DNA of 37,725 bases from a bacterium UBP13_UBA5359 (GCA_002410925.1 DHPR01000031.1:1-37725); one strand, 5' to 3'; shown: positions 16,613 through 37,725, numbered from the stretch's first letter. Made by a program: numbers and translations. The notes: a model not told the origin generated them from the letters alone.

Positions 16613-16642
16613 AAAAAAGGCAATGGAGAGATTGCCTTTTTT
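16613..16642 (+). terminator. Intrinsic terminator
   Basis: AAAAAAGGCAAT-ggagag-ATTGCCTTTTTT. Confidence 0.8.
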
Positions 16643-16819
16643 AATGTACATTTAGATCCGTAATACTATGCCGACAGATAACACTGCAGGATTTTAGATA
16701 ATTTTTATAATTGTATAATTTAAAGAAGGATAGTGCGTCTATTATAACGAATATCCTTGCGAACGAAAAATGTTCAGGCAATGAGAAAATGTTCAGAGCA
16801 AACAAGGAGAGGAAAACTT

Positions 16820-18088
16820 TTGAAGAAAAATATCGCTTTGATAACGGTAATATTGGTAGTCTCTGCAGCTTTGCTTGGCGGCTGCGGTTCGCAAAACAAG
16901 AAGGAAATAACGGTTATGTGGTGGGGGGATGTTTACAACTACGGCTTTGCCGAGAAGCTGGTAGATGCTTATAATGCCACCAACCCGACCAAGCCCGCTA
17001 AACTGATGGGTATCCAGGGACAGTATCAGTATAAATTATTGGCCATGGCGGCTTCCAAAACTCTGCCGGACGTGGTTTTAGTGACGACACCCAATGTCTA
17101 CGATATGGGTTCCAGGGGGGCTCTGCTGCCGCTGAACAAGCGTACCGAAACGGCGGAATTTGAAGCTATGAAAAGCGAGATGTGGCCTAATCTTGTGGAG
17201 GCCTTTAACGTGGGGGGCAAGCAACTGGCTGTACCTATTTGGACATGGACTCCGGGTATTTATTACAACAAGGATCTCTTTGACAGGGCAGGGGTCTCTT
17301 ATCCTTCAAAAAACTGGACTTTCAAAGAGTTTGAGGAGAAGTCCAGAAAGCTGGTTAAAAGGGAGAACGGCAAGGTAAGTATCTACGCTTATAATTCCAC
17401 CTTTTCGTTGAATGATCCTTTGCTTTTATCATATCTTTATGCTCACGGCGGTGCTTTTTATACCGAAGATTATCGGCAGTGTCTGATCGATTCACCCGCT
17501 TCTATAGCAGCCCTAAAGGCTTTTTCAGATCTGCGTCTAAAAGATCATATAGCGCCAAAAGCGGCGGAAGAACAGGGAATGGGCACTTCGGGACGTAATA
17601 CCGACTTCTTTCAAGCGGAAACAGTGGCCATGCGCGTAGCCGGCAGGGATTATCTGGATGTGTTACGGCAACGCGGCGGGATCAAGTTCCGCTGGGGAGC
17701 CGCTTCTATGCCCAGGGGTGATAAGCCCTGCTTCTTCCAGGTTGCCGCAGCTTTAGCCGTATCGGCTCATACAAGGAGCCCGGAGGATGCCTGGAATTTT
17801 ATCTCCTTTGTTGCCGGCAAAAAAGGACAGAAGATGATTACGACAGATAGGTCGGATGTAACTATCTATAGGGAATTGACTTATGGTCAGGACTTTCTCG
17901 GTTACCAGGATAGGCCGGATGTCAGCTCCGTTTTCAGAGATATGTTGCTTGAGGCCGTTCCTTCCCCATACCATTTGGGAGACGACGAATGGAAGTCTCG
18001 GGCAGCGAATCACCTGTCTTTGATGGAACTCGGCCAGATCAGCACCGAGGAAGCCTGCGCCAGGATAGCCGCCGATTACAAACCCTGA
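16820..18088 (+). CDS. Sugar ABC transporter substrate-binding lipoprotein (SBP family 1)
   Basis: Start re-called at TTG 16820 after AGGAGAGG. Lipobox LLGGC; IYYNKDLFDRAGVSYPSKNWT; PEDAWNFISF. Confidence 0.88.
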   Translation: MKKNIALITVILVVSAALLGGCGSQNKKEITVMWWGDVYNYGFAEKLVDAYNATNPTKPAKLMGIQGQYQYKLLAMAASKTLPDVVLVTTPNVYDMGSRGALLPLNKRTETAEFEAMKSEMWPNLVEAFNVGGKQLAVPIWTWTPGIYYNKDLFDRAGVSYPSKNWTFKEFEEKSRKLVKRENGKVSIYAYNSTFSLNDPLLLSYLYAHGGAFYTEDYRQCLIDSPASIAALKAFSDLRLKDHIAPKAAEEQGMGTSGRNTDFFQAETVAMRVAGRDYLDVLRQRGGIKFRWGAASMPRGDKPCFFQVAAALAVSAHTRSPEDAWNFISFVAGKKGQKMITTDRSDVTIYRELTYGQDFLGYQDRPDVSSVFRDMLLEAVPSPYHLGDDEWKSRAANHLSLMELGQISTEEACARIAADYKP

Positions 18089-22444: not shown

Positions 22445-23683
22445 TTGAGCATTCACGCACATCGTTATTTCGCCAGGGTGCTGCAGTTGTCAGGCAAAGA
22501 GGAGATAGCCGGCACCATGGCCTCAATAGGCGTCGATCTGCATGGTATAGAGCGAATGCTGCCTAAAACCGGGCATCACCTGCTCTATTTGAAACGGGTT
22601 CCCGTTCGTGCGGCGATGTTGATAAAGCAGGGAATGCTGGCACGTGACGGCGATGCTGCGCTAAGCTGGGAAGCCTCTAATATGTCGGCAGAGCATACAG
22701 ATATTATTATGATGGGTACGGAGGGGCAACTTCGCTCTGCGCTTGCGCTTCTTCATCAGCAGCCCTTCGGTTTGCCTCTGCTGGCAAAGGAGGCTGAAAT
22801 CGCTCTCAACGCTTGTATTGTCAATAAACCGTATTGGCGTATAGGAGAGAAGTCCTATGATCTCTCCCGCAGGACACTGGTCATGGGTATACTCAATGTG
22901 ACGCCGGATTCATTCTCTGACGGCGGGCGCTACCGCGACCCTAACAGGGCATTGGAGCATGCTTTGAATATGATAGAAGAGGGAGCCGATATCATAGACA
23001 TTGGAGCGGAATCCACGCGGCCGGGATCTGCGGAAGTAACTGCAGATGAAGAGCTTTTACGCTTGATACCGGTGATAGAACGCCTGTCGGATAAGACGGA
23101 TGTGCCGATATCCATAGATACCAGGAATGCCGGCACAGCGGCAGCTGCTCTGCAGGCCGGCGCCGTCATTATTAATGATATTAGCGGTTTGACACACGAT
23201 CCTGATATGGCTTCGGTAGTAGCCGACAGAGGGGCCTCTCTGGTAACAATGCATATCAAGGGAACTCCTGAAACCATGCAGCTGGCTCCTTCCTATGAAG
23301 ATCTTATGGGAGAGGTAAGCTCCTTTCTTTACGATTCTATCGATAGAGCTGTGGCCGCCGGCGTAGCGGAGGATCGTATAGTTGTAGATCCCGGCATAGG
23401 CTTTGGTAAGACAGGGGATAACAATCTGGAGATTCTGCGACGCTTGATGGAGTTACGGTCCCTGGGCAGACCTATATTATTGGGTGCTTCACGCAAAGCC
23501 TTTATCGGAGCGATTCTTAATACAGCTCCACAGAAAAGATTGGAAGGCACTCTAGCCGTCAACACTATGGGCATTGCCAATGGCGCCTCCATTGTAAGGG
23601 TACATGATGTGAAGAGCACTGTCATGGCCTGCCGCATGGCGGAAGCAATACTCTATGGGCGTAAAGAGGCTGAAAAAGGATGA
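22445..23683 (+). CDS. folP: Dihydropteroate synthase with N-terminal extension
   Basis: MGILNVTPDSFSDGG, DIGAESTRPG, VDPGIGFGK, GASRKAFIG, VRVHDV, plus an extra ~140-aa N-terminal domain. Confidence 0.92.
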   Translation: MSIHAHRYFARVLQLSGKEEIAGTMASIGVDLHGIERMLPKTGHHLLYLKRVPVRAAMLIKQGMLARDGDAALSWEASNMSAEHTDIIMMGTEGQLRSALALLHQQPFGLPLLAKEAEIALNACIVNKPYWRIGEKSYDLSRRTLVMGILNVTPDSFSDGGRYRDPNRALEHALNMIEEGADIIDIGAESTRPGSAEVTADEELLRLIPVIERLSDKTDVPISIDTRNAGTAAAALQAGAVIINDISGLTHDPDMASVVADRGASLVTMHIKGTPETMQLAPSYEDLMGEVSSFLYDSIDRAVAAGVAEDRIVVDPGIGFGKTGDNNLEILRRLMELRSLGRPILLGASRKAFIGAILNTAPQKRLEGTLAVNTMGIANGASIVRVHDVKSTVMACRMAEAILYGRKEAEKG

Positions 23684-25947
23684 AGCTGGTCGATTACCGG
23701 CGTGATTTGCGAGGCCTGGCATGGGGACTTTTAGCCTCCATGTTGGCTATATGGGTATGGCATGCCGGCCTTACCAGACGGCTGGAGCTTATTGCTTACG
23801 ATTGTATGTTTCGCTTGGATGGAAGTCAGAGGGTAAAAGAGGACTCCTCCGATGTGGTAGTGGTAGGCATCACCGAAAAATGTCTGAGCCGGCTGGGAGC
23901 ATGGCCCTGGCCGAGACGCTATCATGCCGCTATGGTAGATAGGCTGGCTGCTTATGGCGCCCGGGCGATAGCTTTCGATATTATCTTTTCCGAGCCGAAT
24001 GAGGAAGATGATCCTTTGCTGGCTAATGCCTGCCGTCGCAGCGGGCGGGTTATTCTGCCTGTCTGTACTTCCCGAGAACCTGCTATCAAAGCTGCTTCCG
24101 GTATAATGAAAGTGGATAACCTGACAATACCGACGCCTCAATTGCGCCAGGCCGTATTTGCCCTGGCTCATATCAATCTGAACGCAGACGACAGAGATGG
24201 AATAGCTCGTAGAACGCCGCTTTTTATCAAATATAAGAATGATTATTATCCCTATTTCGGAGCAGCTGTGACCGCTCTCTATTCCGGACGTAAGCTGCAA
24301 GCCGATTCTACCGCTGCAAGGGTAATGATGGGGAGCGAGAGCATCCCCGTAGAAAGCGGTGAAATGGCTATCAATTTTAAGCAAAAACGAGGCTGTTATC
24401 TTTACTCTGATGTTCTGGCCGGCCGGGTTCCTCCGAAAGTATTCAAAAATAAAGCCGTCATCATAGGCAGCATAGGCCCGGGGTTGAGCGATGTCCATAT
24501 AACGCCGCTGCGGGCAATGGATGGAATCATGATACATGCCTCGGCTATAGATACCATGATAGAAGGCCGTTATCTGCAGGGTTTGCCGAAGCTGCTGATT
24601 ATAGCCTTGATACTTCTTTGCGGCGTTCTGACCGGCCTGGGCGTCCTTCGTTATAGGGCATTGGGCGGTTTGGCCTGCCTGCTTGTCTTGATAACCGTAT
24701 TCTTTTCGGCTGCAGTGCTGCTCTTTATTCAATATAATATTATATTGGATATAGTGCCTTTACTGCTTGCTCTGGCTGGAGGATATACCTTTACTCTGGC
24801 AGGGTATTTCAGGTTGGCTGATAAGGTTATCGAGGGACAGGATCTTCGTTTGAGCTCTCTCTATCAGGCCAGCAATACCTCTTCATTAACCGCCTTTAAC
24901 AGTGCTGATGTAGTGAAGATGCTGATAGCCGCTGCTCAGGCGGTAGTCAAAGCCGACGTTTACGGTCTGGCTCTGCCTGATGAAGAAGGGCATCTTGTCT
25001 GGAAAATTGCGGAAGGATGTGCTCCGGAAATTATCGATACCCTCTTTGATGCCGGAGAAGGGGTTACCGGAGAGGCTTTTCGTTCCTGCCGTCCGATTAT
25101 GGCTATAGATATACGTAAGCAGCAGGAGCTGGGCTGTGTCGAACTGGAGTACATGGGAAGAACAGTGCTGTCGGTACCCATGGTGGTGCACTCCTGTTCA
25201 GTGGGCGTACTGACGCTGGTGCAAAAACGGCGCCGGCGGTTCTCCTCTGAGGATTTGGATACCATATCCGCCCTTACCTGTCAGGCTGCCGTTATGCTTG
25301 AAGATGTCTCTTTACAGTTGCAAACCCGCAAGGCATATCTAGGAAGCATAGAAGCATTAAGTATGGCTATTGATGCCAAGGATGATTATACGCACGGACA
25401 TTCTCAGGCTGTAGCCAGAAATGCGATAGCCATTGCTGAAAGGCTCAAGCTATCGGAAAGGGAAATAGAAACTATCCGCCATGCCGCTCTGATGCATGAT
25501 GTAGGCAAGATAGGCATAAATGATTATATTCTTCAAAAACCCGGCTCCCTGACCAGCCAAGAGTATGAAATAATGAAAAGCCATGTTATCTATGGCATGG
25601 AGATCGTAAAGCCACTTGATTTCCTTGGAGATGCCTCGTTGTATCTTCTGTATCATCACGAGCGTGTAGATGGTCAGGGATATCCAGAGGGGTTACAGGG
25701 AGAGGCTATTCCTCTGGGGGCTCGTATTATCAGCGTGGCCGATGCCTTTGATGCCATGACCTCAAACCGTCTGTACCGCAAAGCTCTTGACATAGAAGAA
25801 GCTCTGAAGCGTCTTAAGGAAGGGGCCGGCACACAATTTGACGGTCGCATTGTCGAGATGTTCCTGGAGATAATCAATGAACAGAAGCAATCATCTACAA
25901 GGATAGCTATACGTGAGAGCGGGCGCATTATCGAATCCACACCATAG
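23680..25947 (+). CDS. CHASE2-TM-GAF-HD-GYP cyclic-dinucleotide phosphodiesterase
   Basis: CHASE2 motifs (LGAWPWPRRYHA, IAFDIIFSEP, DRDGIARR); 3 TM helices; GAF; DAKDDYTHGHS, HDVGKIG, HHERVDGQGYP. Confidence 0.9.
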   Translation: MKLVDYRRDLRGLAWGLLASMLAIWVWHAGLTRRLELIAYDCMFRLDGSQRVKEDSSDVVVVGITEKCLSRLGAWPWPRRYHAAMVDRLAAYGARAIAFDIIFSEPNEEDDPLLANACRRSGRVILPVCTSREPAIKAASGIMKVDNLTIPTPQLRQAVFALAHINLNADDRDGIARRTPLFIKYKNDYYPYFGAAVTALYSGRKLQADSTAARVMMGSESIPVESGEMAINFKQKRGCYLYSDVLAGRVPPKVFKNKAVIIGSIGPGLSDVHITPLRAMDGIMIHASAIDTMIEGRYLQGLPKLLIIALILLCGVLTGLGVLRYRALGGLACLLVLITVFFSAAVLLFIQYNIILDIVPLLLALAGGYTFTLAGYFRLADKVIEGQDLRLSSLYQASNTSSLTAFNSADVVKMLIAAAQAVVKADVYGLALPDEEGHLVWKIAEGCAPEIIDTLFDAGEGVTGEAFRSCRPIMAIDIRKQQELGCVELEYMGRTVLSVPMVVHSCSVGVLTLVQKRRRRFSSEDLDTISALTCQAAVMLEDVSLQLQTRKAYLGSIEALSMAIDAKDDYTHGHSQAVARNAIAIAERLKLSEREIETIRHAALMHDVGKIGINDYILQKPGSLTSQEYEIMKSHVIYGMEIVKPLDFLGDASLYLLYHHERVDGQGYPEGLQGEAIPLGARIISVADAFDAMTSNRLYRKALDIEEALKRLKEGAGTQFDGRIVEMFLEIINEQKQSSTRIAIRESGRIIESTP

Positions 25948-25985: not shown

Positions 25986-26044
25986 TTGACGGGCAATAGC
26001 CGGTATGATATAAATTATATATGTTAGTTAACTAAGCAGATAAG
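25986..26044 (+). promoter_or_regulatory. Promoter plus operator 1 of the GntR/LacI regulator
   Basis: TTGACG, 17-nt spacer ending TGa, TATAAA; then GTTAGTTAACTAAGCAGATAAG containing the perfect palindrome TTAGTTAACTAA (26024-26035). Confidence 0.75.
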
Positions 26045-26111
26045 AGTATGCTCTTATTCATTTGAACAAGATACCAGAGTATATTCGGGAAGATGTGTGG
26101 GAAGAGCGATA

Positions 26112-27200
26112 ATGAAAGTATCTACTATTAACCATAAAGATCCATCCCCGCTCTATCTGCAGGTGAAGGACTTTATACTTGGAGAGATAAAGTCCGGCAG
26201 GTATGGCATTGATTGCTTGATTCCTTCAGAAAATGAACTGGTCAGGGCCTACGGTGTAAGTCAGGGAACTGTGAGGAGAGCCTTGCTTGAGCTGGTAAAG
26301 GATGGATATCTTTACAGGCGGCAGGGAAAGGGAACCTTTGTGAGCAGCCGCTGGATAGAGAGCAATGTAGAGCCATCATTTGTAAAATTTTTCTTTCCCA
26401 TGTTTGAAGAGCAGGATCAGATATTTGATCGTCACCACAAGGAGCTGGCAAGAGGTATTCAATCTTACCTTAGCAGCATATCCGGTGGATATGAGATGCT
26501 CATAGATATCGTATTGGATGAGCGAAAGCCGGGGGGACTGGTTATTCAGGAAACACCTTTTATCAAGGGGGCATTCTTTGATCTGCTGAATCCTGTTAAT
26601 CCGGAGATACTACGCAAGCTAACGACTCCCTGCGTTACTATTCATCGTCACATACCCGGAATACCCGGCATCAGAATAGATAATAGCAAGGGCGCCGAGA
26701 GTGTAATTAAGCACTTAGTGGAATATGGGCATCGACGAATAGGATTTTTAAAAAACCGTCAGGATTATGCCGACACCCAGGAGCGTTTTACCGGGTACCT
26801 GGCTGCGCTCGCAGATAACGGTCTTCCATATGAAGAGGAACTGGTAATGCCGAGCTCATGGTACGGTGAGGGCGCATATCTGGCAGCTGAAAAGCTTTTA
26901 TCTTTGCCGAAGCCGCCGAGCGCTATTTTTGCTCCCGGATGGCAAATGGCTCTTGGCGTTCTGAAGGCTGCCAAGGATAAAGGCGTAGATGTGCCCGGGG
27001 ATCTGGCGGTAGTGGCTTTTGACGATTTGACGGAGCTATATAAACCGAGAGTTCCTTTGACCACAATAAAACAACCTGTCTTTGAGATGGGGGAAAAAGC
27101 CGCAAAGATGCTGATCGATCTTGTTGATGGAGAGCGGGCGGGAAGTGAGCATATTACCCTCCAACCTCAATTAATAATAAGAAGATCTACAACAGGTTAG
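26112..27200 (+). CDS. GntR-HTH / LacI-type sugar-binding hybrid repressor (AraR-like)
   Basis: PLYLQVKD...IPSENELVRAYGVSQGTVRRALLELVKDGYLYRRQGKGTFV; C-terminal GHRRIG, VPGDLAVVAFDD, LTTIKQP, LIIRRST. Start re-called at ATG 26112 (GTG 26097 is an alternative). Confidence 0.92.
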   Translation: MKVSTINHKDPSPLYLQVKDFILGEIKSGRYGIDCLIPSENELVRAYGVSQGTVRRALLELVKDGYLYRRQGKGTFVSSRWIESNVEPSFVKFFFPMFEEQDQIFDRHHKELARGIQSYLSSISGGYEMLIDIVLDERKPGGLVIQETPFIKGAFFDLLNPVNPEILRKLTTPCVTIHRHIPGIPGIRIDNSKGAESVIKHLVEYGHRRIGFLKNRQDYADTQERFTGYLAALADNGLPYEEELVMPSSWYGEGAYLAAEKLLSLPKPPSAIFAPGWQMALGVLKAAKDKGVDVPGDLAVVAFDDLTELYKPRVPLTTIKQPVFEMGEKAAKMLIDLVDGERAGSEHITLQPQLIIRRSTTG

Positions 27201-27277
27201 GAAAAAGGTTTATTTTATGCAGTTGTAGCGGCTTATGAAGCGTTACCTTTATCAAGTTATCCCTTAGCGGCACGGGT

Positions 27278-27299
27278 GTTAGGCAACTAAGTAGACAGA
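27278..27299 (+). promoter_or_regulatory. Operator 2 (auxiliary copy)
   Basis: GTTAGGCAACTAAGTAGACAGA, 17/22 identical to operator 3. Confidence 0.6.
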
Positions 27300-27467
27300 C
27301 GGGAGAAGAGGAAAAATATCAAGATTACCGGTAACATTTAAAGGGAAGAGAAGAAAGAAATTTGCTACCTATTTATTCGTTGCTTTATCCGATTTGGAAG
27401 TGATATTTCTAGAAGGAGAGCGGATACCTTAACAAGATTTAAAGGCTTATACACAGATCTCGTTAGA

Positions 27468-27526
27468 TTGACAGGCAACCCCCTTTATGGTATAAGATTT
27501 GTAGGTTGGTTAACTAAGTAGACAAG
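27468..27526 (+). promoter_or_regulatory. Promoter plus operator 3 of the pilin-led operon
   Basis: TTGACA, 17-nt spacer ending TGg, TATAAG; then GTTGGTTAACTAAGTAGACAAG, 19/22 identical to operator 1. Confidence 0.8.
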
Positions 27527-27541
27527 CATGGAGGTGCAGTA

Positions 27542-28168
27542 ATGAAAAGAAGGAGCAGGAAGGGATTTACACTGATAGAATTGCTGGTAGTTATTGCAAT
27601 TATTGCCATACTTGCCAGTATTCTTTTCCCAGTCTTCGGGCAGGCCAGGGAAAGGGCCAGGATGGCAACCTGCCAAAGCAATTTAAAGCAGTTGGGACAG
27701 GCATTTACTATGTATTGTACTGACTGGGACGACTGCCTGCCGCTTGCCAATCACCATGTGGGTGATGGTAGATATATCAAATGGACAGAGCCCACGATTA
27801 TTCCTCCGTATACAGGGCAGAAAACAGGCAAAGGCAGCGGTATCTTCGTCTGCCCTAATCGGGAAGCCTTGCCAAACATGGATTACTACGGCATGAACTA
27901 TTATGTCGCCATGAGATCGCCATCCGAATCTCGGAATATAAGCGGCATTATTCTCTTGATGGAGACACTGGCCTCGCATGATGGCGCTGTTAACCATTAC
28001 AAGAACCTGCTGCCGGATACCGAGGGAGGGGTTTTGCGGTATGATCACAATGACGGCATGAATATCCTTTATCTCGACGGTCACGTCAGCTGGCGTAAAT
28101 ATATTCCTGATGCATTTAAAACCGGCAGTGTCGTTACTAACCTCAAGAATGGTTTGGGCTGGGAATAA
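27542..28168 (+). CDS. Prepilin-type N-terminal cleavage/methylation protein with H-X9-DG C-terminal motif (DUF1559-like)
   Basis: [49 protein letters not shown]-terminal [22 protein letters not shown]. Confidence 0.92.
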
Positions 28169-28181
28169 AGGGAGGAAATTA

Positions 28182-30452
28182 ATGAAAAAGAGGGTTCTTA
28201 AAGGCACTCTGTCAATCATCGTGTTGCTGAGTGTCACAATGGCTGCCGGCAGCATAGGTGCAACTGAAACGAAGATTGAGAAGCCTGAGTGGGCCGGCAA
28301 TAAGATCGGTTATGAGGCCCTTGATCCTGATTACGTAGATGTAGACTACGGTCCTATGATTGTCAGCGGTAAGACGGCCATCTCTCTCTTCAAGAAGATC
28401 ACCCTGGCCAAATCAGGGCTGCCGGAGATGATCTCGGTTAAGGACAATAAAATCATAAGCGGGCCGGTAAAGCTCCTTTTGGAAAATGAAAAGGGACCGA
28501 TTCTTTATAATGTAAGTGATTGTAAATTAACGCAGAGAGGCAAGAGCGCCGCCGAAGGTGTCGCCAAGTTTGCTGCCGGGGCAGTTGAAGTAGAGATCAA
28601 AAGCCAATTTGAATTTGACTTTACTGTACGCTATCTGATTACCTTGACGCCGAAAAGAAAGACTCTTCTGAAGAGAGCGGCATTGGTTTTTCCTATGAAT
28701 CTGGATGGCGAGAAGCTCTGCCTTTATTACAAGGAAGGTCCGGATAAGCCGGAGGCCGGTGTGGATGCGCAGAAGCGGCGTGTGCATAAAACTATCAAAG
28801 AGGATGACTATGATCAGATCATGCCAGGCTTTTGCTCCATCTTCTGGGTGGGCAATACCAATTACGGCCTCTCTTGGAACTTTGAATCAGCCAGAGGCTG
28901 GAATGTCGTCAAGGGGAGCGAACTGCAGTATGATCCCGGCACCAATAACATGACGATCAATTTCATCAATAGAGCAACGGAATTGAGTCAGCCGGTGACA
29001 TATAAGTTCTTCCTAACACCTACCCCGCTGAAGAATATGCCTAAAAACTGGCGCACCTGGAACTACGCATGGCGGGGGACTCCTGAGCAGAAGATAGATC
29101 GCAAGCTGATAAATCAGCTTATCTACTGGTCCAGCACCTGGCGCGGAGGGGGTTATAATCCGCAGTGGGTACGTAATCCCGAGCTACTTAAAAGGGCAGC
29201 TCAGGAAGATGCGGGCATGAATAAGGCCAACTACGTAATACCTCAGCTCAATACCTGGCAGATGACCTGGGAGGCAGAGGATGGCAGTTTTTATGTGCTT
29301 GAAGATAAATATCTGAAGATGCTTTGTGAGAAGTATGCCCGCACTCCCGGTATGAAAGGAAGAGAGATAGATATTCCTGAAGATGCTATCTATTTCAAAA
29401 ATATCGAGGAACGCAACAGGGTTTTGGGACCGGCCAGCTTTCCCAATGCCAAAATCAAGAGCACGGGTGTAACGTATGATGTAGTCTTTGCACCGGAGAT
29501 GGCTGATCACATGCTCTGGGCAGTTGACAAATTTGCCAATGAATATGGTGTAGGCGGTATTTATTACGATGGCATCAACCCGCAGCAGAACTACAGTGAT
29601 TGGGCTGCCTGGACGGATCCTGAAGGGAATAAGCGTCCCACCTTCCATTACGAGTGGCAACGAGAACTTCTCAAGAGAGTTCGCTCTGTCGTCAAGAAGG
29701 CCGATCCCAATGAGATGATAACGGCTCATCAGTCAGGCACCAGGCCTGCATCGACACTCTCTCTTTGTGATGTTATTATTCCGGGCGAGACCTTCTTCTA
29801 TTGGTATCACGAACCGGAAAAGCGTGATGCCTCATCCGATGGCGATTTTTACTATGCTCATATTATAGGGGATATAGATAATGTAAAGACAGAGTTCTTT
29901 CATCGCCAATGGGGTGTGCCTCATATTCTATTGCCGGAAGTACGGGGCAAGGATAGCAGGATATTCCCTAAGCCCGCCAAGGGTACTCGCACTATGCTGG
30001 CTTATACATTGCATTTCGATATGCTTTACTGGCCGACTATGTGTGATACGGGAGAGATATTCAAGTTATACAAGATAAGGAATGCCTATGGCATGGCAGA
30101 TACCAGCGAAGAGACGATAGAATTTATACCGTATTGGGAAAACAGGGTGTTCAAGCCTAGCGACCGCAATGTCAAAATCAGTTATTACGATAAGGTCAAA
30201 CAGCATGAACCCTATACCAGCTATGATATTCGTAAGAAATATCTGGTAATAGTCTCCAATCTTCAGTTTGGCGGCGCTGAATTCAATATTACTCTGCCGG
30301 CTAAGCTGCAAAAGGTCAAAATCAGAGAAATGCAGGCAAACAAGGAGGTAGTTCCGGAGAAGGGCAAGTTTTCCTGCAGCCTGGAGGCTTACGACTTTGC
30401 CATCTATGAAGTTACCGGCGAATTGCTAGAGCAGAGCAAGGGAACGTGGTAA
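28182..30452 (+). CDS. Secreted DUF6067/GH123-like putative glycoside hydrolase
   Basis: Start re-called at ATG 28182 (RBS GGGAGG). Signal peptide; motifs WVGN..GL.W..ES..GW, TP.K..P..WR, GIYYDG, GE, QWGVP..LP, EFIPYWEN. Confidence 0.65.
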   Translation: MKKRVLKGTLSIIVLLSVTMAAGSIGATETKIEKPEWAGNKIGYEALDPDYVDVDYGPMIVSGKTAISLFKKITLAKSGLPEMISVKDNKIISGPVKLLLENEKGPILYNVSDCKLTQRGKSAAEGVAKFAAGAVEVEIKSQFEFDFTVRYLITLTPKRKTLLKRAALVFPMNLDGEKLCLYYKEGPDKPEAGVDAQKRRVHKTIKEDDYDQIMPGFCSIFWVGNTNYGLSWNFESARGWNVVKGSELQYDPGTNNMTINFINRATELSQPVTYKFFLTPTPLKNMPKNWRTWNYAWRGTPEQKIDRKLINQLIYWSSTWRGGGYNPQWVRNPELLKRAAQEDAGMNKANYVIPQLNTWQMTWEAEDGSFYVLEDKYLKMLCEKYARTPGMKGREIDIPEDAIYFKNIEERNRVLGPASFPNAKIKSTGVTYDVVFAPEMADHMLWAVDKFANEYGVGGIYYDGINPQQNYSDWAAWTDPEGNKRPTFHYEWQRELLKRVRSVVKKADPNEMITAHQSGTRPASTLSLCDVIIPGETFFYWYHEPEKRDASSDGDFYYAHIIGDIDNVKTEFFHRQWGVPHILLPEVRGKDSRIFPKPAKGTRTMLAYTLHFDMLYWPTMCDTGEIFKLYKIRNAYGMADTSEETIEFIPYWENRVFKPSDRNVKISYYDKVKQHEPYTSYDIRKKYLVIVSNLQFGGAEFNITLPAKLQKVKIREMQANKEVVPEKGKFSCSLEAYDFAIYEVTGELLEQSKGTW

Positions 30453-30473
30453 GGGAAGCAAGGAAGCAATAAG

Positions 30474-31502
30474 ATGAAGAAATTTATGATGATAGGTATA
30501 TCGTTAGCATTATTAGCCGGTTTCACCGGTCAGGCGGCTGCAGCCGAGAGCGATCTTCTGGCTGCAGCTCTGGCCGGACAAAGTGATGAAAGGATCGAAG
30601 ATGGCTGCTACGGGTTATCGGAAGTAATGGTGCCTTATGATAGAGGCGGAGCGTTGCTGATCTTGCCGAAGAAAGATGGCAAGACATTCAACAAAATTGT
30701 TGCGCCGGCTATCAAAGTCAAGCCATCAACGCGGTATGTTATTGACTGGGAAGTTTTGCCGCAACAATCTTTACGACTGTTGGTTTTTACGGTATATGAA
30801 AATCCGCGCAACGGTCGGGATCCGTTGAATCATGTGATGAGCTTTGAAAATAGTTCTGCTTTTATGCGGGTGGAAAAAGAGATCATTACGCCGCCTGATG
30901 CTACAAGGCTAAGGTTGCATATTTATCTCAGTGCTAAATCTTTGAAATCCGACACCCTGCTAGGCTTCTTTAAAAGTCTAAAAATACGTGAAATCGGTCT
31001 CTCGCAACCCGCTCCGGCACTGCAAAGCTTGCTGGGTAAAAATATTTTGCCGATAAGCAACTTCGATGCTTTGGAGGTCGGCGAGAAAGATCTCTCTAAG
31101 ATGGGGCTTTTCACTGGATTTGCACAGAAACCTTATGCTGCTGAAATAGTAAGGGACGAAGGCGGGCGTAAAGTTCTTCGCGTGAATTATAAGCCTGGCG
31201 ATTATCAGTATATCTCCTGGTATTCGCCGGGGATTATGAATCTTTATGGCTCTGCCGGAACCATGAAATGCCGTATGAGAGGCAAAGGAAGGGTTCAATT
31301 GATGGTTTTCTGGGGGAGACCGAAGTTTCATTCTATTTTTCGTCATTTCGGTTTCTTTGACCTAACGCCTGAATGGAAGGAATACAGTGTGGGTATAGGC
31401 TGTGACGACCCGCTGACCGAGAGAGTTTCGGCAACCATCGCTTGCCGTGATAACGAAACCGAATTTGAAATTTCCGATATTAGTTATATTTTGGCCGATT
31501 AA
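30474..31502 (+). CDS. Secreted protein with two CBM/galactose-binding-like beta-sandwich modules
   Basis: Signal peptide ending AAA|AE; jelly-roll-like motifs IKVKPSTRY, ITPPDAT..RL, MRGKG, LTPEWKEY, EISDI. Confidence 0.55.
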   Translation: MKKFMMIGISLALLAGFTGQAAAAESDLLAAALAGQSDERIEDGCYGLSEVMVPYDRGGALLILPKKDGKTFNKIVAPAIKVKPSTRYVIDWEVLPQQSLRLLVFTVYENPRNGRDPLNHVMSFENSSAFMRVEKEIITPPDATRLRLHIYLSAKSLKSDTLLGFFKSLKIREIGLSQPAPALQSLLGKNILPISNFDALEVGEKDLSKMGLFTGFAQKPYAAEIVRDEGGRKVLRVNYKPGDYQYISWYSPGIMNLYGSAGTMKCRMRGKGRVQLMVFWGRPKFHSIFRHFGFFDLTPEWKEYSVGIGCDDPLTERVSATIACRDNETEFEISDISYILAD

Positions 31503-31754
31503 GAAGATGCTTTGGAAAATACCGGCATATTTATAAAATGGCAAAGACTTTCAATGGCAAAGTGCTGGATCAAGGCAAAGGAATCTGATAAGGGAGATGG
31601 GGAAGCTCAATATATTAGACATGGGTTATGCCTGATTGAGATCAAGTGATGTTATTGTGCCAGGGACCGTAAGGGCGCTTTTTTAGCGCAATTATAGCGA
31701 TAAGCTATGTACACAGATTATTATTTATCAGGTAAAGGGAGTAACAAGAAGAAT

Positions 31755-33077
31755 ATGAGTGCGATTGAAAGATGGAAAAGGCTTATGGCAGGAGCGCTTC
31801 TTCTTGTCGGCGGCCTCTTTTTAGGAGGATGCGCGGGCGATAAAAAGAGGATGGATAACACGGATAAGGCGGAAGTAAGATGGTATATCTGGGCTGTTCC
31901 GGAAACAGAGAAGGTATACCGTGAAATGGCCGATGCTTTTGAAGCGGAGAACAGCGATATTAGAATCAAGCTGGAAGCTGAGCCATGGTCCAGTTATAGC
32001 AGAAAGCTGCTTACCATGATGGCCGGCGGTACGGCGCCTGATGTTTTTACCACCGAATATGTTCTCTTTTATCCCTGTGTGGCCAAGGGCCAGGTATTAT
32101 CGCTTGATAAGTATATCGCCAAGGATAAGAGCTTCGCTCCGGATGATTTCTTCCCGCAAACATTAGAGGCTTGTAAGGTTGACGGCCGCTTATATGCTCT
32201 GCCCAAGGAAGTAAATGTTCTATGCATGTATTACAATAAGAAGCTTTTTGATGCGGCTGGTATGCAGTACCCTGCTGATGGCTGGACATGGCAGGATTTT
32301 TTACAAAAAGCAAAGGCGATAGCCGCCATTAAAGAGGGCAGAAATAAAAATTTCGGTTTTTATGTTTATTGCAAGAGCACGGGATATCTACCATGGATAT
32401 TACAGAATAACGGCAGTTTATTTGACAGCGATAATATGCCGCCACGGTATGCAAACCTTGATTCTCCGGCAGTTCAGGAAGCTTTGCAATTTCTGGTAGA
32501 TTTAATTTGCAAGCATCATGTTGCACCGACAGCCTCGGAGGAGCAGGGACTGGGGGATATCTTTGCCAACGGCAGGCTGGGCATGATGTCAGCCTGGATG
32601 ACATCTATAACCCGATATGAGAAGCAGATAAAGAGTTTTGAATGGGATGTTGCCCCATTGCCGGCCAATAAAAAGAGAGCCAATCTGGGACTGGTACTTA
32701 TGTACGCCATATCTTCACAAACGAAACATCCTGAGGAAGCATATCGTTTTACAAGGTTTTTAGCAGGTGAAAAGGCGCAGAAGATTCTGGCTGAATCGGG
32801 AATGGCTGTTCCCGTACTGCGCTCTGTTGCTGAATCTCCGGCTTTTATAGGAGAGGGAAAGAGAGCATCCATGATGTCCAAGATTGTCGATTCCATAGCT
32901 TATGCAGACTTTAATTTTACTCATGTACGTGCACTGCCGAATATGCAAGAGATAGGCGAAACCATTGATAGAAATCTAGAGCTTGCCTTTATGGGGAAGA
33001 AAAGTGTTAAAGATGCCTGTCTTGGCGCTAAAAAGGAAGCTGATAAGCTAATAGCTGAAGAGCGCTCGCGTAAATAG
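31755..33077 (+). CDS. Sugar ABC transporter substrate-binding lipoprotein
   Basis: Lipobox FLGGC; KLLTMMAGGTAPDV, YYNKKLFDAAGMQYP, WDVAPLP, KHPEEAYRF. Exact start uncertain (31707, 31755 or 31785). Confidence 0.88.
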   Translation: MSAIERWKRLMAGALLLVGGLFLGGCAGDKKRMDNTDKAEVRWYIWAVPETEKVYREMADAFEAENSDIRIKLEAEPWSSYSRKLLTMMAGGTAPDVFTTEYVLFYPCVAKGQVLSLDKYIAKDKSFAPDDFFPQTLEACKVDGRLYALPKEVNVLCMYYNKKLFDAAGMQYPADGWTWQDFLQKAKAIAAIKEGRNKNFGFYVYCKSTGYLPWILQNNGSLFDSDNMPPRYANLDSPAVQEALQFLVDLICKHHVAPTASEEQGLGDIFANGRLGMMSAWMTSITRYEKQIKSFEWDVAPLPANKKRANLGLVLMYAISSQTKHPEEAYRFTRFLAGEKAQKILAESGMAVPVLRSVAESPAFIGEGKRASMMSKIVDSIAYADFNFTHVRALPNMQEIGETIDRNLELAFMGKKSVKDACLGAKKEADKLIAEERSRK

Positions 33078-33135
33078 AGCCGGAAACAGAGGTTTTTATC
33101 TGTTTTTATTTCTAAAAAAACGGAGGTATACGTAA

Positions 33136-36100
33136 ATGAGATTCTCAAAAGAGATGAAAATTTTCAAAAGATTGGCGAGAAATCTTTTCTTGTGGCAGTT
33201 CTGTGGTCTTTTCCTCTTTGCCGGTTTTGCTATGGCAGGGGAGCTTTCTTCATTAAAACCGGGCATTATTAAAAGAGAGGCTCTTATACGCGAGGAAAGC
33301 ATCGCTGTCCAAATAGATGTAAATAATATTGCCGGCGTTAATAAAGATATGAGGGCGATCATCAATATCAAACCGGAGCATGTTGATCAGAATGATGATA
33401 TAGCGCTGGCAACCGCCTCAATAGATACTTTCCCTGCCGGCAAGGGGAAGGCTAAGTTATCGATTAAGGGGCTTATTCCGGCAAAGTACCGTCTGAACGT
33501 TATCGTTTACGAAGGCAAGAAGATAGCATTTAATCACGATGAATATTTCGATATTTCCAAAGCCGATGGAGCGAAGGATGCAAATGTTCGTGTTAAGGCT
33601 GTATTCGGCAGCATAGAGGAGGCTTTTGCCACGGCTCAGGGCAATTTAGTGTCGATAACCTTTGAAGAGAATGAAAAGATTGATGCAGCATTGGAAATCC
33701 TTGATAAAAAGAATGTCTCCTTCAAGGAGGGATATAAAAGCCGGCAGGGGATAGGGATTACGAGTTCCGGAGAAAAGGCGCAGCTTGCATTTCGTATTCG
33801 GCCCTTGTCAGTAGTGAATGGGGAAAAAATCGATATTTCTTTTAATTATAAGACAAGCAATGCTCTGGAAAAGAAGCTTTTGTTGATGGTCTATTATTAT
33901 AATAAGGATAACAAACAGCTTAGGGTGAGCTATATAAAGGTACCGCAATCATCTGATTGGACCTTTTTCTCCTGCTCGCAAGATGTGCGTACGGGAGAGG
34001 CGTATATGGCTGTAGTCTTTCGTTTTGATGGCGCGCCTACTACAGAGTGGGCGGTAATTGACAATATAACCCTATCAAAGGTCAGGGAGCGCAAAAGAGA
34101 TGCGGCCGCTGTAGAGGCCTTTTTAAAGACGGCTGACCTGGAATGGCTGAAAAAACCCGTTGGCCTGGAAGCTCTCTCCGATGATACCGTTCTTCCACCT
34201 TTTACCTCTGTAGCTGTTCAAGGCAATACCGTAGAAGTTTGGAACCGTAAGTATGGGTTTAATACTATAGGCTTGCCATCTGAAGTAGTTACCGCAAATG
34301 CTTCGATATTGAATGGGCCTATTACTCTGTCCTGCCTTTCCAATGGAATTGATCTTTTTTCCGAGTTGCAGCATAATCGCAAACCGATAATCAGTAAGAG
34401 AACGAAAGGTAAGGTTGAATTTACACGTAAAGCAAATCTGAAGGATATCGGTGTTTCCTTTAAATCAAGCATAGAGTACGATGGCTTTGTTTGCTATACA
34501 ATGACAATTGTTCCTCGAAAGGCGGTGCTTATCGATAATCTGCGCTTGGAGATACCGCTGAAAGAGGAGTATGCTCGGTATCTTTACGCAGGGGGTGAGC
34601 CAACAATCCGGACAACCGATGGCCCCAAGATACTTGATCGGGCACTGATGAAGGCTCTTGATGGAGAGGGAGTATTATGGCAAAGCCCATTCAAACCATG
34701 GATATGGCTGGGCGATGACGAACGAGGCTTTGAGTGGTTCTGCAATAGCGAGCAAGGATGGTACCCGCAGGATTATTCCAGCAGGCAGAGAGCTCAGCAG
34801 GTAGTTAAAAAGGGCAAAACCGTTTCTATCAGTATCTCTCTAATCTCGGCGCAAAAGGAGCTTAAAAAGCCTGTCACCTATACATTCGGCTTTATAGCCA
34901 CGCCCGTGCGCCCTGAGCCGAAGGGTTGGCGGGCATGGAAGTTCAAGATAAAGAATTACTGGGATTATGTTTCCGGCAGCGAAAAGGCCAATATATTCAA
35001 CTATTGGCCAGCGCCGCCGTGGTCGGAAATAATACATTCGCCGGAGATACCGGATAAGGAGAAGTACCGGCTTATTGCCGAAGAAGATCATCGTAAAGGA
35101 CATACTGTCTTGCCGTATATCTCTCCCATACTCTTTGGATACGGCATACGATCAAACAAGGAAGAGCTTGCACATAACCCTGTGTATGATCCCTTCTCTG
35201 AAGAGTGGGCTTTGCATAATCCTAACCCCTCCCTTTTAACGACCAGGCGTGGAAAGACAGACCACATAGCAAGCTTTGTCTGTCCGGTAAGCCGTTGGGC
35301 GGATTATATGATCTGGAGCATGAAAAAGCATGCCCAATGTGGAGCTGACGGCATAAGCATATTTGATGGCGGCACAGGGCCATGCAGAAACACTCTTCAC
35401 GGTTGCGGCTATTCCGATGACGCGGGGGAGGTGAATTCCACATATACCGGTCTTGCAGTGCGCAATATGTGTAAAAGATTACTCTATATGTTCAATCAGG
35501 AGCGCGGCTCGATAAAGAGTATAACCGGGCTGGGCATCGACCATACGCATTACGGCAATGGTGATGTTGCTTTTAAAGGAGCTTTCTTTGACGGAGGGCT
35601 TAAAGGCGAAGAGTTAAATAGTGGATATTATCTTGAATCTGCTGAATGGAAGAACAAGTTGTTCCAGGATCAGTATTACTATGCAAATATGCTTCCGCTG
35701 GAAATCTTCCGTATCGGCTGGGGGCACCAATGGGGCTGGGTGCCCATATTCTTCCCTCAATTGACAAAGTCTCCCGGCATTGATAAAGAATGGGCAAGCA
35801 GCCCGGAGGGAACAAAGGATTTCATGGTTTTGGCATTGCTGCATGACTGCCGGGTGCTGCCGCATTGGTGCCATGTGAAGACAGTGTTCGACGTGTGGAA
35901 TGCCGAGGATAAGTTTGGGCTGGGAGATGACGATGTCGAATTTCTACCGTATTGGAAGAACGAAAGGTATGTAAAGAGCTCAAGCGATAGCGTGAAAGTG
36001 AGTCTTTACAGGAAAAAAGAGGCGATAATGGCTATCATCGGCAATGTCGCCAAAACTCCCGAGGAAGTACAGGTAAAGTTGAACCTGGCAGAAATAGGCG

Positions 36101-36219
36101 CCGTTAAAAAGTCTAAAAAGGTGTTTGATGGAATTACCGATGAAAGCCAAAGCTTCGAAAAGAATACGTTCAACTTTAAAATCCCTCCCCGGGATTACAA
36201 GATAATAATAATACAGTAA
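33136..36219 (+). CDS. Large secreted protein: Ig-like + CBM-like + DUF6067/GH123-like domain
   Basis: Signal peptide ending FAMA|G; motifs VLPPFT, EYDG, WLGDDERG.EW...S..GW, ATPVRP.P.GWR, GE, QWG..P.F.PQ, LLHD, EFLPYWKN. Confidence 0.65.
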   Translation: MRFSKEMKIFKRLARNLFLWQFCGLFLFAGFAMAGELSSLKPGIIKREALIREESIAVQIDVNNIAGVNKDMRAIINIKPEHVDQNDDIALATASIDTFPAGKGKAKLSIKGLIPAKYRLNVIVYEGKKIAFNHDEYFDISKADGAKDANVRVKAVFGSIEEAFATAQGNLVSITFEENEKIDAALEILDKKNVSFKEGYKSRQGIGITSSGEKAQLAFRIRPLSVVNGEKIDISFNYKTSNALEKKLLLMVYYYNKDNKQLRVSYIKVPQSSDWTFFSCSQDVRTGEAYMAVVFRFDGAPTTEWAVIDNITLSKVRERKRDAAAVEAFLKTADLEWLKKPVGLEALSDDTVLPPFTSVAVQGNTVEVWNRKYGFNTIGLPSEVVTANASILNGPITLSCLSNGIDLFSELQHNRKPIISKRTKGKVEFTRKANLKDIGVSFKSSIEYDGFVCYTMTIVPRKAVLIDNLRLEIPLKEEYARYLYAGGEPTIRTTDGPKILDRALMKALDGEGVLWQSPFKPWIWLGDDERGFEWFCNSEQGWYPQDYSSRQRAQQVVKKGKTVSISISLISAQKELKKPVTYTFGFIATPVRPEPKGWRAWKFKIKNYWDYVSGSEKANIFNYWPAPPWSEIIHSPEIPDKEKYRLIAEEDHRKGHTVLPYISPILFGYGIRSNKEELAHNPVYDPFSEEWALHNPNPSLLTTRRGKTDHIASFVCPVSRWADYMIWSMKKHAQCGADGISIFDGGTGPCRNTLHGCGYSDDAGEVNSTYTGLAVRNMCKRLLYMFNQERGSIKSITGLGIDHTHYGNGDVAFKGAFFDGGLKGEELNSGYYLESAEWKNKLFQDQYYYANMLPLEIFRIGWGHQWGWVPIFFPQLTKSPGIDKEWASSPEGTKDFMVLALLHDCRVLPHWCHVKTVFDVWNAEDKFGLGDDDVEFLPYWKNERYVKSSSDSVKVSLYRKKEAIMAIIGNVAKTPEEVQVKLNLAEIGAVKKSKKVFDGITDESQSFEKNTFNFKIPPRDYKIIIIQ

Positions 36220-36239
36220 AGATGTAAATAATGCGGATA

Positions 36240-36355
36240 ACGGCATGGAGATCCTTTATCTCGGCGCCATGTCAGCCGGCGTAAATATATTTCTGATGCA
36301 TTTAAAACCGGCAGTGCCGCCGCTAACTTCGAGAGCGGTCTGGACTGGGAGTAAA
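36240..36355 (+). pseudogene. Decayed copy of the 3' end of the prepilin-type gene (28053-28169)
   Basis: Manual alignment gives about 98/117 identical positions, 18 substitutions and a 1-nt deletion. Ends at the same TAA. Confidence 0.85.
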
Positions 36356-36520
36356 TGTGAAGCAATATAGCCGGGGCATAGAGTAGCGGTGCTCGCAAAA
36401 GTAAGTTGTTGTAAACAAAGGGGCCGTTGTGAAAAAGCGGCCGCAGCCCTATGCCGAGCATGATATTTGCAAAAAGTATCCGATAGTAATGTCTAAATCT
36501 TTAGCAATCAGGAGGTTGTT

Positions 36521-37378
36521 ATGAAAAGAATGATATGTATCTCTTTGATGACGCTGGTAATGTTTTCGTTAAGTACGGCTGCCTTTGGCGGACAAAACCT
36601 ATTTAAGGCTGGTGATGCGGAAGCTCCTGATGCAGCATCTGCCTGGGATAAACCGGTGAGCATTTGCACCACTGATAAAAAGGCGGGTAAGGCCTCATTT
36701 GAGACTTCCGAGGTTCCGATAATTTTGATAAGCAAGGAGCTGATACCGGTTGATTCTTCAAAAAAATATGAACTCTCAGCTTTCTTAAAATCAGCCTCAG
36801 GTTCAGCTGATGATCCGAGTGTTTGCTCGCTGGGCCTGGCTATGTTCGATGTTAACAAGAGAAGCATCATAAAATCCAATGCCGTCATAGTACCGGATAC
36901 GGAAACCGTTCTTGTTGAAGCGGCGGTAAAGGGCGAAACGACGATTGCAATAGCTGATGGTTCTAAATGGGAGAAGAGAAGGAGTATTCCTACGGCTGTG
37001 GCTTTTAATGCTAAGCCGGAATTGGCAGATCTTCCCAACTATGAATATAGCAGCAGCATCTCTGTCTTTACAAAAAATGATAACGGTAGCTATAAATTAA
37101 AGTTAAGCAAGCCTTTGGCCAAGGGCTATCCCGCAGGCACCAAAGTGCGCCAACATCATAGCGGCTTTCTTCAGCCGGTGGTTGCCGTAGTCAGGATACC
37201 TGCTGAATGGACAGAATATAAAATGTATTTCGAGGGCGTGAGCACCTCCGAGGAGGACAGGGATAAGTTCTGGCAAGGCACGAAATATGTCAAGATCTTT
37301 ATAATAGCCAACATGTGGGGAAGGAAAGGGCCTAGATTGCTCTTTGATAATATAGAATTTAAAGAGATTGAAAAATAA
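36521..37378 (+). CDS. Secreted hypothetical protein, CBM-like sandwich with an inserted domain
   Basis: Signal peptide; QNLFKAGDAE, IPVDSSKKYELS, WTEY, LLFDNIEFKE. RBS AGGAGG. Confidence 0.6.
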   Translation: MKRMICISLMTLVMFSLSTAAFGGQNLFKAGDAEAPDAASAWDKPVSICTTDKKAGKASFETSEVPIILISKELIPVDSSKKYELSAFLKSASGSADDPSVCSLGLAMFDVNKRSIIKSNAVIVPDTETVLVEAAVKGETTIAIADGSKWEKRRSIPTAVAFNAKPELADLPNYEYSSSISVFTKNDNGSYKLKLSKPLAKGYPAGTKVRQHHSGFLQPVVAVVRIPAEWTEYKMYFEGVSTSEEDRDKFWQGTKYVKIFIIANMWGRKGPRLLFDNIEFKEIEK

Positions 37379-37653
37379 AGAGCTCATAGAGAGTTCACAG
37401 GGTGAGAGTATATTTGAATATATTTTTGAATATATTAAAGATTTAACGACGGAAGAGCTTTACAGCGCAGTACCGAGGGCTTAAATATGTAGCAATGAAA
37501 GGCAAAAAACGGCAAAGCGTGACGATGAGCTATGAATATGGGGACAAAGCGCAGGTACCCGTGACGAGGTTATAATTACTATAATCTGCCGGGAAGCAGT
37601 ATAATGACGCCGTGTCTAAGATAGCTTTACAAGAAGGGGGCAGGAGGTTAATC

Positions 37654-37725
37654 ATGTTGATTAAAGTAGGAATTATAGGTTGTGGGGGCATAGCACGTCG
37701 CCATGTGACCGGTTATACCGATAGC
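37654..37725 (+). CDS. Gfo/Idh/MocA-family oxidoreductase, N-terminus only (runs off the window)
   Basis: RBS AGGAGG; MLIKVGIIGCGGIARRHVTGY Rossmann motif. Not in the ORF track. Confidence 0.8.
   Translation, partial: MLIKVGIIGCGGIARRHVTGYTDS

Follow-up and report, generated by a model that had tools for sequence, protein, structure and literature searches.

Pilin-like genes behind sugar-type regulators at putative glycan operons of an uncultured bacterium

Pilins, fibres and glycan loci described so far

Polysaccharide utilization loci (PULs) of Bacteroidota bring together a regulator, glycan-binding parts and glycosidases for one substrate, together with a SusC/SusD pair and surface glycan-binding proteins (SGBPs). 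Type IV pilins are also known to engage polysaccharides, as illustrated by the cellulose-binding pilins of Ruminococcus albus. Here we describe a locus at the end of a 37,725-nt stretch of DNA from the bacterium UBP13_UBA5359 (GCA_002410925.1, DHPR01000031.1; hereafter the window), in which a gene for a type IV pilin-like protein stands between a sugar-type regulator and genes for secreted glycan-related proteins. The window is the complete contig 38 of a 40-contig, 2.25-Mb assembly with a completeness of 98.4%. The host is an uncultured bacterium whose class and phylum hold, in the taxonomy used, its own genus only, yet by sequence comparison the nearest relatives of its glycan genes are in metagenome-assembled genomes (MAGs) labelled Lentisphaerae or Victivallales. 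An earlier note, made from the sequence alone, had read positions 26112..37725 as a pilin-led glycan utilization locus under a sugar-responsive repressor, and had proposed that the pilin takes the part that SusD plays in a PUL.

Three described systems invite comparison. PilA of Caldicellulosiruptor bescii is induced by xylan and binds it (bioRxiv 10.1101/614800). Pili of the C. bescii and R. albus type offer a polysaccharide-induced type IV pilin that binds its polymer directly and is encoded near glycan-degradation genes, but they are described as involving one pilus locus and one major pilin in a monoderm cell, with neither a pilin for each operon nor an H-X9-DG motif. In planctomycetes, pili-like fibres seated on crateriform structures bind dextran (PMC5394234). 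There the cell is of the Planctomycetes-Verrucomicrobia-Chlamydiae (PVC) type and rich in DUF1559 genes, its fibres bind polysaccharide and polymers are taken into the periplasm without SusC/D; however, that study leaves the fibre protein unidentified and does not link it to DUF1559 genes or operons. The Opitutales isolate Verruconatronum alginivorum encodes a PulG-like pseudopilin, pgaptmp_000050, with 67 paralogs, in an operon upregulated on alginate (PMC13274419, 2026). A pilin-like gene thus lies within a polymer-induced polysaccharide-degradation operon and has many paralogs, as in the window. The organism differs in belonging to the Opitutales, in a pseudopilin gene that is not the first of its operon, in a Na+ symporter within the operon and in TonB systems in the genome. 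That paper touches on the pseudopilin only briefly, with a role in export proposed, and we liken it to the window pilin by description, not by sequence.

Compared with a Bacteroidota PUL, the window locus has no SusC/SusD pair (a separate search with SusD models was not made) and has a cytoplasmic repressor, and its inner-membrane uptake would use a shared ATP-binding cassette (ABC) permease with operon-specific substrate-binding proteins (SBPs). Its parts are all of known kinds. What is new is their arrangement, an operon-specific pilin and binding protein combined with machines encoded once elsewhere. Our literature search, which did not extend to supplementary files, turned up no account that treats the occurrence of one pilin gene per glycan operon systematically.

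The DUF1559/H-X9-DG family is among the largest function-less paralogous families of Planctomycetota, Verrucomicrobiota, Lentisphaerota and Armatimonadota, with at least 7302 clusters at E<=1e-10. To our knowledge it has no assigned function, and membership alone explains nothing. Members of these phyla degrade complex glycans, and the route by which polymers cross their outer membrane is unsettled. A rule of one pilin-like gene per sugar-regulated glycan operon, joined to shared machines, would tie the family to glycan acquisition and give it a testable role.

The pilin-like protein, its regulator and their recurrence

The pilin-like protein opens with a class III signal peptide, comprising a short basic leader that ends in Gly, Phe at +1, Glu at +5 and a hydrophobic stretch of ~20 residues, and it matches N_methyl (40.4 bits, Pfam) and TIGR02532 (37.2 bits, cut-off 16.3; NCBIfam). 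The H-X9-DG motif near its C-terminus is directly readable in the translation (TIGR04294, 20.8 bits; cut-off 19). This motif, the prepilin N-terminus and a match to PF07596 (DUF1559/SBP_bac_10; 29.6 bits against a cut-off of 23.3) place the protein in the H-X9-DG/DUF1559 family. It shares with that family the type of signal peptide, the AREKAR..C.SN.K helix, the C-terminal H-X9-DG-H and massive paralogy, but it is a short form of ~210 aa whose PF07596 match spans only positions 2-37 of the 268 in the profile. In an alignment of 79 homologues, F+1 and E+5 never vary, nor does most of the N-terminal helix, and G-1 is almost constant. Invariant too are C44, C104, Y58, D61, H169, D179, G180 and H181, the His and Asp residues among which may form a metal site.

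We identified 33 paralogs of this protein in the genome (phmmer with the window pilin, E<1e-20), 32 with the prepilin motif and 26 with a strict H-X9-DG. Their mean top-residue frequency is 0.77 over the first 55 residues, compared with 0.31-0.36 over residues 56-160, which we read as a common assembly interface bearing a diversified head. One common assembly partner would fit these proteins because the first 55 residues are conserved and F+1 and E+5 do not vary. The AlphaFold (AF2) model of the window pilin (predicted local distance difference test 82.3, predicted template modelling score 0.78) has the pilin fold, a long N-terminal helix (residues 11-61) on a small antiparallel beta sheet. 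In an exhaustive structural search with this model, the first 18 of 18 rows were type IV pilins or pseudopilins, led by PilA4 (6xxd, Z 5.9), EpsG (4lw9, Z 5.3) and PulG (Z 4.3); the best Foldseek match was FimA (E 0.02).

Upstream of the pilin gene lies a regulator that combines a GntR-type helix-turn-helix (HTH) domain (PF00392, 59.4 bits) with a LacI-type sugar-binding domain (Peripla_BP_3, 124.8 bits), the latter with partial NCBIfam matches to the effector domains of CytR, RbsR and PurR. A 20-mer with the palindromic core TTAGTTAACTAA occurs in three copies, one before the regulator gene and two between it and the pilin gene (Table 1). A search of the 2.25-Mb genome allowing <=4 mismatches found these three copies only, all at this locus. 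The first and third copies sit within 41-nt promoter-like blocks that are 78% identical. The end of the third copy lies 18 nt upstream of the pilin ATG, and the interval contains a ribosome-binding site, GGAGGTG, at 27530-27536. A consensus promoter scan of the locus stayed at background level. The HTH, the sugar-binding domain and a palindrome at its own and at the predicted target promoter mark the protein as a repressor of the LacI/GntR type, probably one that acts locally and controls its own gene, with the regulated transcript beginning at the pilin gene. The earlier note's hybrid GntR/LacI regulator followed by an operator-bearing promoter thus held up.

The same note made the pilin-like gene the first gene under this operator, and the gene order agrees. 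Only 13 nt separate it from the 756-aa gene, another 21 nt lie between the latter and the 342-aa gene, and 58 nt between the SBP gene and the 1027-aa gene; no terminator-like site was detected in the + strand gaps of the operon. Because of this spacing, we infer a transcript that runs from the pilin gene into the genes for the enzymes, the carbohydrate-binding-module (CBM)-like proteins and the lipoprotein.

The plan is not a one-off, as it recurs at about thirty cassettes of the genome. A Pfam scan of neighbouring genes placed a sugar-type regulator directly upstream of 22 of the 33 pilin genes, with two of the upstream genes lying outside the fetched loci and therefore unscanned. These regulators comprise 13 hybrids of GntR with a periplasmic-binding-protein (PBP)-type domain, 4 of LacI type, 3 of AraC type (one divergent), 1 GntR-UTRA and 1 DeoR. 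When regulators were defined by BLAST, they stood directly upstream on the same strand for 16/33 pilins versus 33/2018 genes overall (binomial P 2e-20), and a pilin gene directly followed 16 of the 36 regulators so defined. The gene directly downstream of the pilin encodes a glycoside hydrolase (GH), CBM or LamG domain in 17 of 33 cases. Farther downstream are GH20, GH38, GH42, GH57, GH89-like, GH123, GH130 and BNR sialidase-like genes, as well as sugar kinases and Gfo/Idh/MocA genes. Eight of 12 SBP genes lie within 6 genes of a pilin gene, and 5/6 DUF6067-like genes within 3. The survey that the earlier note had called for, of enrichment for carbohydrate-active enzymes (CAZymes) and LacI/GntR regulators around such pilins, therefore revealed a strong association, and one that recurs in other genomes.

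Relatives of the 756-aa protein were found at 19 loci, all in MAGs labelled Lentisphaerae, Lentisphaeria, Victivallales or Victivallaceae, with a best identity of 58%. In 16 of these loci the pilin hidden Markov model found a match, usually just upstream of the DUF6067 enzyme gene. In five Lentisphaerae MAGs, a search with the pilin profile gave 92, 99, 107 and, for the remaining two, at least 150 matches each. We sampled 30 of their pilin loci, chosen as the best-scoring pilins with 1.5 kb on each side. Fifteen have an adjacent regulator, either a same-strand PBP-type regulator (11; 7 found by script and 4 by inspection, owing to overlapping stop-to-stop frames) or a divergent AraC (4), and fifteen have none.

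The pilins themselves appear to undergo turnover, or exchange from one cassette to another. Direct evidence of turnover or recombination comes from a dead remnant of a second pilin gene that lies between the 1027-aa and 285-aa genes of the window. Its sequence matches 28050-28169 at 84-87% identity with the stop codon intact, but a 1-nt deletion has shifted its frame.

Shared machines, uptake and the function of the pilin

The 27 open reading frames (ORFs) scanned in the window contain no TonB-receptor, ABC permease/ATPase or pilus-assembly domain, as the earlier note had stated. A check run on the rest of the genome located prepilin peptidase, assembly ATPases and secretins. A cluster on contig 1 resembling those of type IVa pili (T4aP) encodes a PilB-like protein (570 aa), a PilT-like protein (367 aa), PilC, PilM, a secretin, three pilin-like proteins and the only full-length prepilin peptidase of the genome, PilD (A24_N_bact and Peptidase_A24). 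Contig 13 carries a complete type II secretion system (T2SS), consisting of GspD with an N0 domain, M, an L-like gene, K, J, I, H, G, F and E, as well as a Tad pilus cluster. The genome also has an orphan PilB/GspE-like ATPase and a fourth secretin. The pilin encoded directly after PilD (contig 1, 23774-24457; 7775-8458 of locus L049) bears H-X9-DG-H, and this arrangement is kept in 3/3 genomes of the genus. When aligned by hhalign with the pilin family profile, this T4aP-cluster pilin gave E 3.5e-27 versus 7e-15 for the true GspG of the genome (contig 13, 431843-432286). We favour the T4aP-like machine as the partner of the window pilin mainly because the pilin of its own cluster is an H-X9-DG family member.

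Uptake genes are equally centralized. The genome has three BPD_transp_1 pairs, one Pst, one Opp and one of sugar type, SugB/MalG-like, at 174479-176379 of contig 40; the last has no ATPase gene alongside and a family-less 489-aa protein upstream. None of the 12-13 SBP_bac_1 genes, which are spread over contigs 4, 9, 27, 30, 35, 37, 38, 39 and 40, lies beside the sugar permease pair, and the SBP gene of the window has neither permease nor ATPase genes with it in the window. Genome-wide we counted one Plug-domain gene (a 612-aa frame on contig 23), one SSF and about seven MFS_1 transporters, and zero matches to MFS_2 and phosphotransferase-system EIIC. The downstream cassette proteins scanned contained one EamA and no ABC-permease, TonB-receptor or MFS domain. 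SusC/D-type uptake is thus practically absent from the genome, and neither the Plug-domain gene nor the sugar permease pair is near a contig end. The lack of transport genes at the locus is therefore the rule in this genome. SusC/D or permease genes immediately outside the window, which the earlier note had named as a finding that would undo its proposal, are unlikely. The hub-and-spoke layout, with specificity parts in each operon and shared machines, matters for annotation. Because a dozen operon-specific SBPs are matched by one sugar ABC permease pair, CAZyme-cluster predictors that require a transporter would miss such loci.

Our tentative interpretation, to which we give a probability of roughly 0.4, is that a sugar induces the pilin-like protein, which then becomes part of a shared type IV filament used in glycan acquisition. 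Several points favour it: the assembly end of the protein is conserved, the T4aP-cluster pilin belongs to the same family, the genome encodes PilT, outer-membrane glycan importers are nearly absent, and there are published precedents. The hybrid repressor would, most likely, bind the 20-bp operator at its own promoter and at that of the pilin gene until a sugar signal releases it. The derepressed transcript would then start at the pilin gene and continue into the genes for the secreted enzymes, the CBM-like proteins and the binding lipoprotein. The single full-length prepilin peptidase would cleave the pilin-like protein, and a shared type IV machine would then assemble it into a filament; the PilB/PilT/PilC/PilM/secretin cluster of contig 1 is the leading candidate for this machine. 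Such an induced fibre would hold, and possibly reel in, the glycan polymer; Sec-exported enzymes would cut it, and the lipoprotein of the operon would bind the products and hand them to the single shared sugar ABC permease. Each operon would thus carry its specificity parts, namely regulator, pilin, enzymes and binding protein, and the engines would be encoded once elsewhere. A bolder version of this scheme makes the H-X9-DG pilins sugar-induced retractile fibres that pull polysaccharide through a secretin into the periplasm, a route that resembles the competence pilus and would take the place of SusC/D in bacteria of the PVC type. The protein behind the dextran-binding planctomycete fibres would then be identified as well; we regard this version as unlikely.

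Several results weigh against the filament interpretation. The structural Z scores of the pilin are modest (maximum 5.9). Eleven of the 33 pilin genes have no adjacent regulator, and two stand in non-glycan contexts, one with GT2 (glycosyltransferase family 2) and tetratricopeptide-repeat (TPR) genes and one with a lipoate ligase gene. The duplicated operator could not be generalized: in the other cassettes tested, the best 16-mer shared by the sequence upstream of the regulator and the regulator-pilin spacer did not exceed shuffles, and three further cassettes had spacers too short for the comparison. No H-X9-DG pilin was found within 1.5 kb of PilD in the five Lentisphaerae MAGs, so that the T4aP link rests on one genus; the sampled unrelated bacteria showed none beside PilD either. 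In its variable part, the window pilin most resembles paralogs from the same genome (best 29% identity, E 2e-10), and the pilins that stand beside orthologous enzymes elsewhere match it far more weakly (best E 0.006), although those enzymes are 35-59% identical. Non-orthologous pilins beside orthologous enzymes argue against a conserved substrate-specific partner. A conserved partnership of the pilin with a given glycan or enzyme is thus not visible at the sequence level, and some other cause may underlie the diversity of its variable region.

The genome also has a complete T2SS, and the pilin could instead be an operon-specific T2SS pseudopilin that joins the periplasmic pseudopilus encoded on contig 13 and helps to export the large enzymes of its operon, as piston mass or cargo adaptor. 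The cluster for such a pseudopilus (GspD-M, K-G, F, E) is complete, the other operon proteins have signal-peptide-like N-termini (judged by eye) and no recognisable surface anchor, and the window pilin shares the signal peptide type, the helix and the overall fold with GspG, PulG and EpsG, the last two of which are among its structural matches. Its best partial NCBIfam match is indeed GspG (TIGR01710), but at 39.6 bits this lies far under the cut-off of 88.85, and the T2SSG domain (PF08334) was not detected by Pfam. The protein also bears the H-X9-DG motif and a larger variable domain, its gene lies away from the T2SS cluster, and that cluster already has a G, H, I, J and K of its own. Known T2SSs export many cargoes without private pseudopilins. 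Moreover, the N-terminal region of the pilin is closer to that of the T4aP-cluster pilin than to GspG, and the lack of orthology among pilins beside orthologous enzymes tells against a T2SS pseudopilin as well. We therefore hold this alternative to be somewhat doubtful, while acknowledging that the Opitutales study suggests export of the alginases of the pseudopilin-bearing operon by a T2SS (PMC13274419), which speaks for it and against a filament.

Three further explanations appear less probable. The class III signal peptide might simply anchor a periplasm-facing domain in the inner membrane for binding, chaperoning or sensing glycan products, as the name SBP_bac_10 implies, and such a role would suit cassettes that often lack an SBP of their own (12-13 SBPs compared with 33 pilins). 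The modelled fold, however, is that of a pilin and not of a periplasmic binding protein, the Pfam match of the short form is confined to the first 37 of 268 profile positions, and the invariant F+1 and E+5, the nearly invariant G-1 and the very conserved helix indicate processing and helix-helix assembly, which make this explanation quite unlikely. Less probable again is a display scaffold, in which the variable domain docks anchorless CBM-like or LamG proteins and enzymes on a surface fibre. Small anchorless proteins made of CBM or LamG domains only are frequent neighbours of pilin genes, the dead second pilin copy directly precedes the 285-aa CBM-like gene, and at locus L033 the pilin gene is followed by 342-aa-like and 285-aa-like genes; yet no pilin-neighbour pairs are orthologous, contrary to what a conserved protein interface would predict. 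Finally, the adjacency could be irrelevant to glycan use if pilin genes merely spread by duplication and recombination, riding on strong inducible promoters. Within-genome paralogs are more alike than positional counterparts elsewhere, and the remnant demonstrates turnover, as expected of hitch-hiking genes. We nevertheless consider this highly improbable, given that the adjacency far exceeds chance in this genome and is seen again in distant genomes, the regulators belonging to four HTH families (GntR, LacI, AraC and DeoR), and given the induction at the protein level on alginate reported for another PVC lineage (PMC13274419).

Other genes of the locus and its surroundings

The features of the locus are listed in Table 1. 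Genes were called with a simple longest-ORF caller, so that small errors in the assignment of neighbours are possible, and the Sec-signal-peptide look of the four non-lipoprotein products was judged by eye from the translations. The + strand holds every gene from 26097 to the contig end, and the inventory that the earlier note gave for this region is correct apart from two qualifications, which concern the labels CBM-like and GH123-like.

Table 1. Coding and regulatory features of the pilin-led locus, with coordinates in the window
Feature	Coordinates	Strand	Evidence
Promoter-like block with operator copy 1 (20-mer at 26023-26042, perfect palindrome TTAGTTAACTAA)	26004..26044	+	located before regulator gene
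Regulator, GntR-type HTH fused to LacI-type sugar-binding domain (Peripla_BP_3)	26097..27200	+	Pfam, NCBIfam
Operator copy 2	27278..27297	+	located in regulator-pilin spacer
Promoter-like block (TGGTATAAG) with operator copy 3 (27505-27524)	27486..27526	+	located before pilin gene
Pilin-like protein, 208 aa, prepilin-type (class III signal peptide), H-X9-DG/DUF1559	27542..28168	+	Pfam, NCBIfam, AF2 model
DUF6067/GH123_N protein, 756 aa, signal-peptide-like N-terminus, putative glycosidase	28182..30452	+	PF19543, 53.6 bits
Family-less protein, 342 aa, signal-peptide-like N-terminus, CBM_4_9-like lead	30474..31502	+	Atlas; 7 homologues
Orphan carbohydrate ABC substrate-binding lipoprotein, carbohydrate uptake transporter 1 (CUT1) type	31707..33077	+	SBP_bac_1, 147.8 bits; lipobox
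DUF6067/GH123_N protein, 1027 aa, signal-peptide-like N-terminus	33136..36219	+	PF19543, 111.8 bits
Dead remnant, 3' end of second pilin gene, 119 nt	36237..36355	+	repeat families; alignment to 28050-28169
Family-less protein, 285 aa, signal-peptide-like N-terminus, ConA-like/CBM-like lead	36521..37378	+	Atlas
Start of Gfo/Idh/MocA-type oxidoreductase gene, truncated by contig end	37654..37725	+	GGAGG and ATG; same-genus homologue

The 756-aa and 1027-aa proteins are paralogs with 22-23% identity (tblastn), and orthologues of the former, at 35-70% identity, occur in Lentisphaerae/Victivallales MAGs. Both match PF19543, GH123_N, which we take to be the former DUF6067, so that the earlier designation DUF6067/GH123-like stands in its first part; its second part finds no catalytic counterpart, as Pfam detected no GH123 catalytic domain (PF13320) in either protein. 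An hhalign comparison of the DUF6067 family profile with a paralog bearing GH123_cat gave a probability of 1.6, and a search of PDB sequences with the profile returned no GH123 structure (E<=1) and a weak match to the GHL10 TIM barrel of Cwp19 (75 residues, E 0.005). Single-sequence PDB searches with both large proteins yielded nothing usable.

The two secreted proteins that had been called CBM-like, of 342 and 285 aa, do exist, but neither has any Pfam or NCBIfam match. Atlas leads point to CBM_4_9 and ConA-like folds, in Lentisphaerota-only clusters, and a CBM-like nature is plausible for both. The sugar-binding lipoprotein is well marked by its SBP_bac_1 domain and the lipobox LFLGGC, its likely start being a Met 16 codons into the called ORF. 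A family-less 738-aa protein and a second orphan SBP_bac_1 gene, the latter 50% identical to SBP genes of contigs 4 and 9, occupy 14372-18088 of the window. This pair adjoins a divergent group on the - strand at 11702-13967, made up of an extracytoplasmic function (ECF) sigma factor, a TPR protein and a 250-aa gene, and a pilin gene is absent there.

The Gfo/Idh/MocA oxidoreductase reported at the contig end is present as a gene start only, beginning 38 codons before the end and identified through the start of a 322-aa Gfo/Idh/MocA gene in a same-genus genome, with 84% DNA identity over 81 nt. No other contig end overlaps the end of contig 38, a tblastn search of contig ends with Gfo/Idh paralogs yielded no credible continuation, and an exact 56-nt pattern from the window end matched 0 stretches in metagenome contigs. 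At the DNA level, same-genus genomes match the end of the window only in this gene start. The same-genus homologue (locus L088; genome G001, contig C76, 4677-7757) follows purD- and purE-like genes and not a glycan cassette, and the cassette at 26-37 kb of the window may accordingly be a species-specific insertion.

Elsewhere in the window, a CHASE2-GAF-HD (HD_5) signalling protein is encoded at 23680-25947, on the same strand as the regulator and directly upstream of it. A GH78-like alpha-L-rhamnosidase gene (3607-6024) lies outside any pilin cassette. URO-D-like genes (uroporphyrinogen decarboxylase family) recur beside glycan cassettes, at 7224-8348 of the window (- strand) and at loci L020 (6561-7664) and L053 (9626-10666), and the contig opens with an IS3-type transposase pair (HTH_Tnp_1 and rve) at 395-1505.

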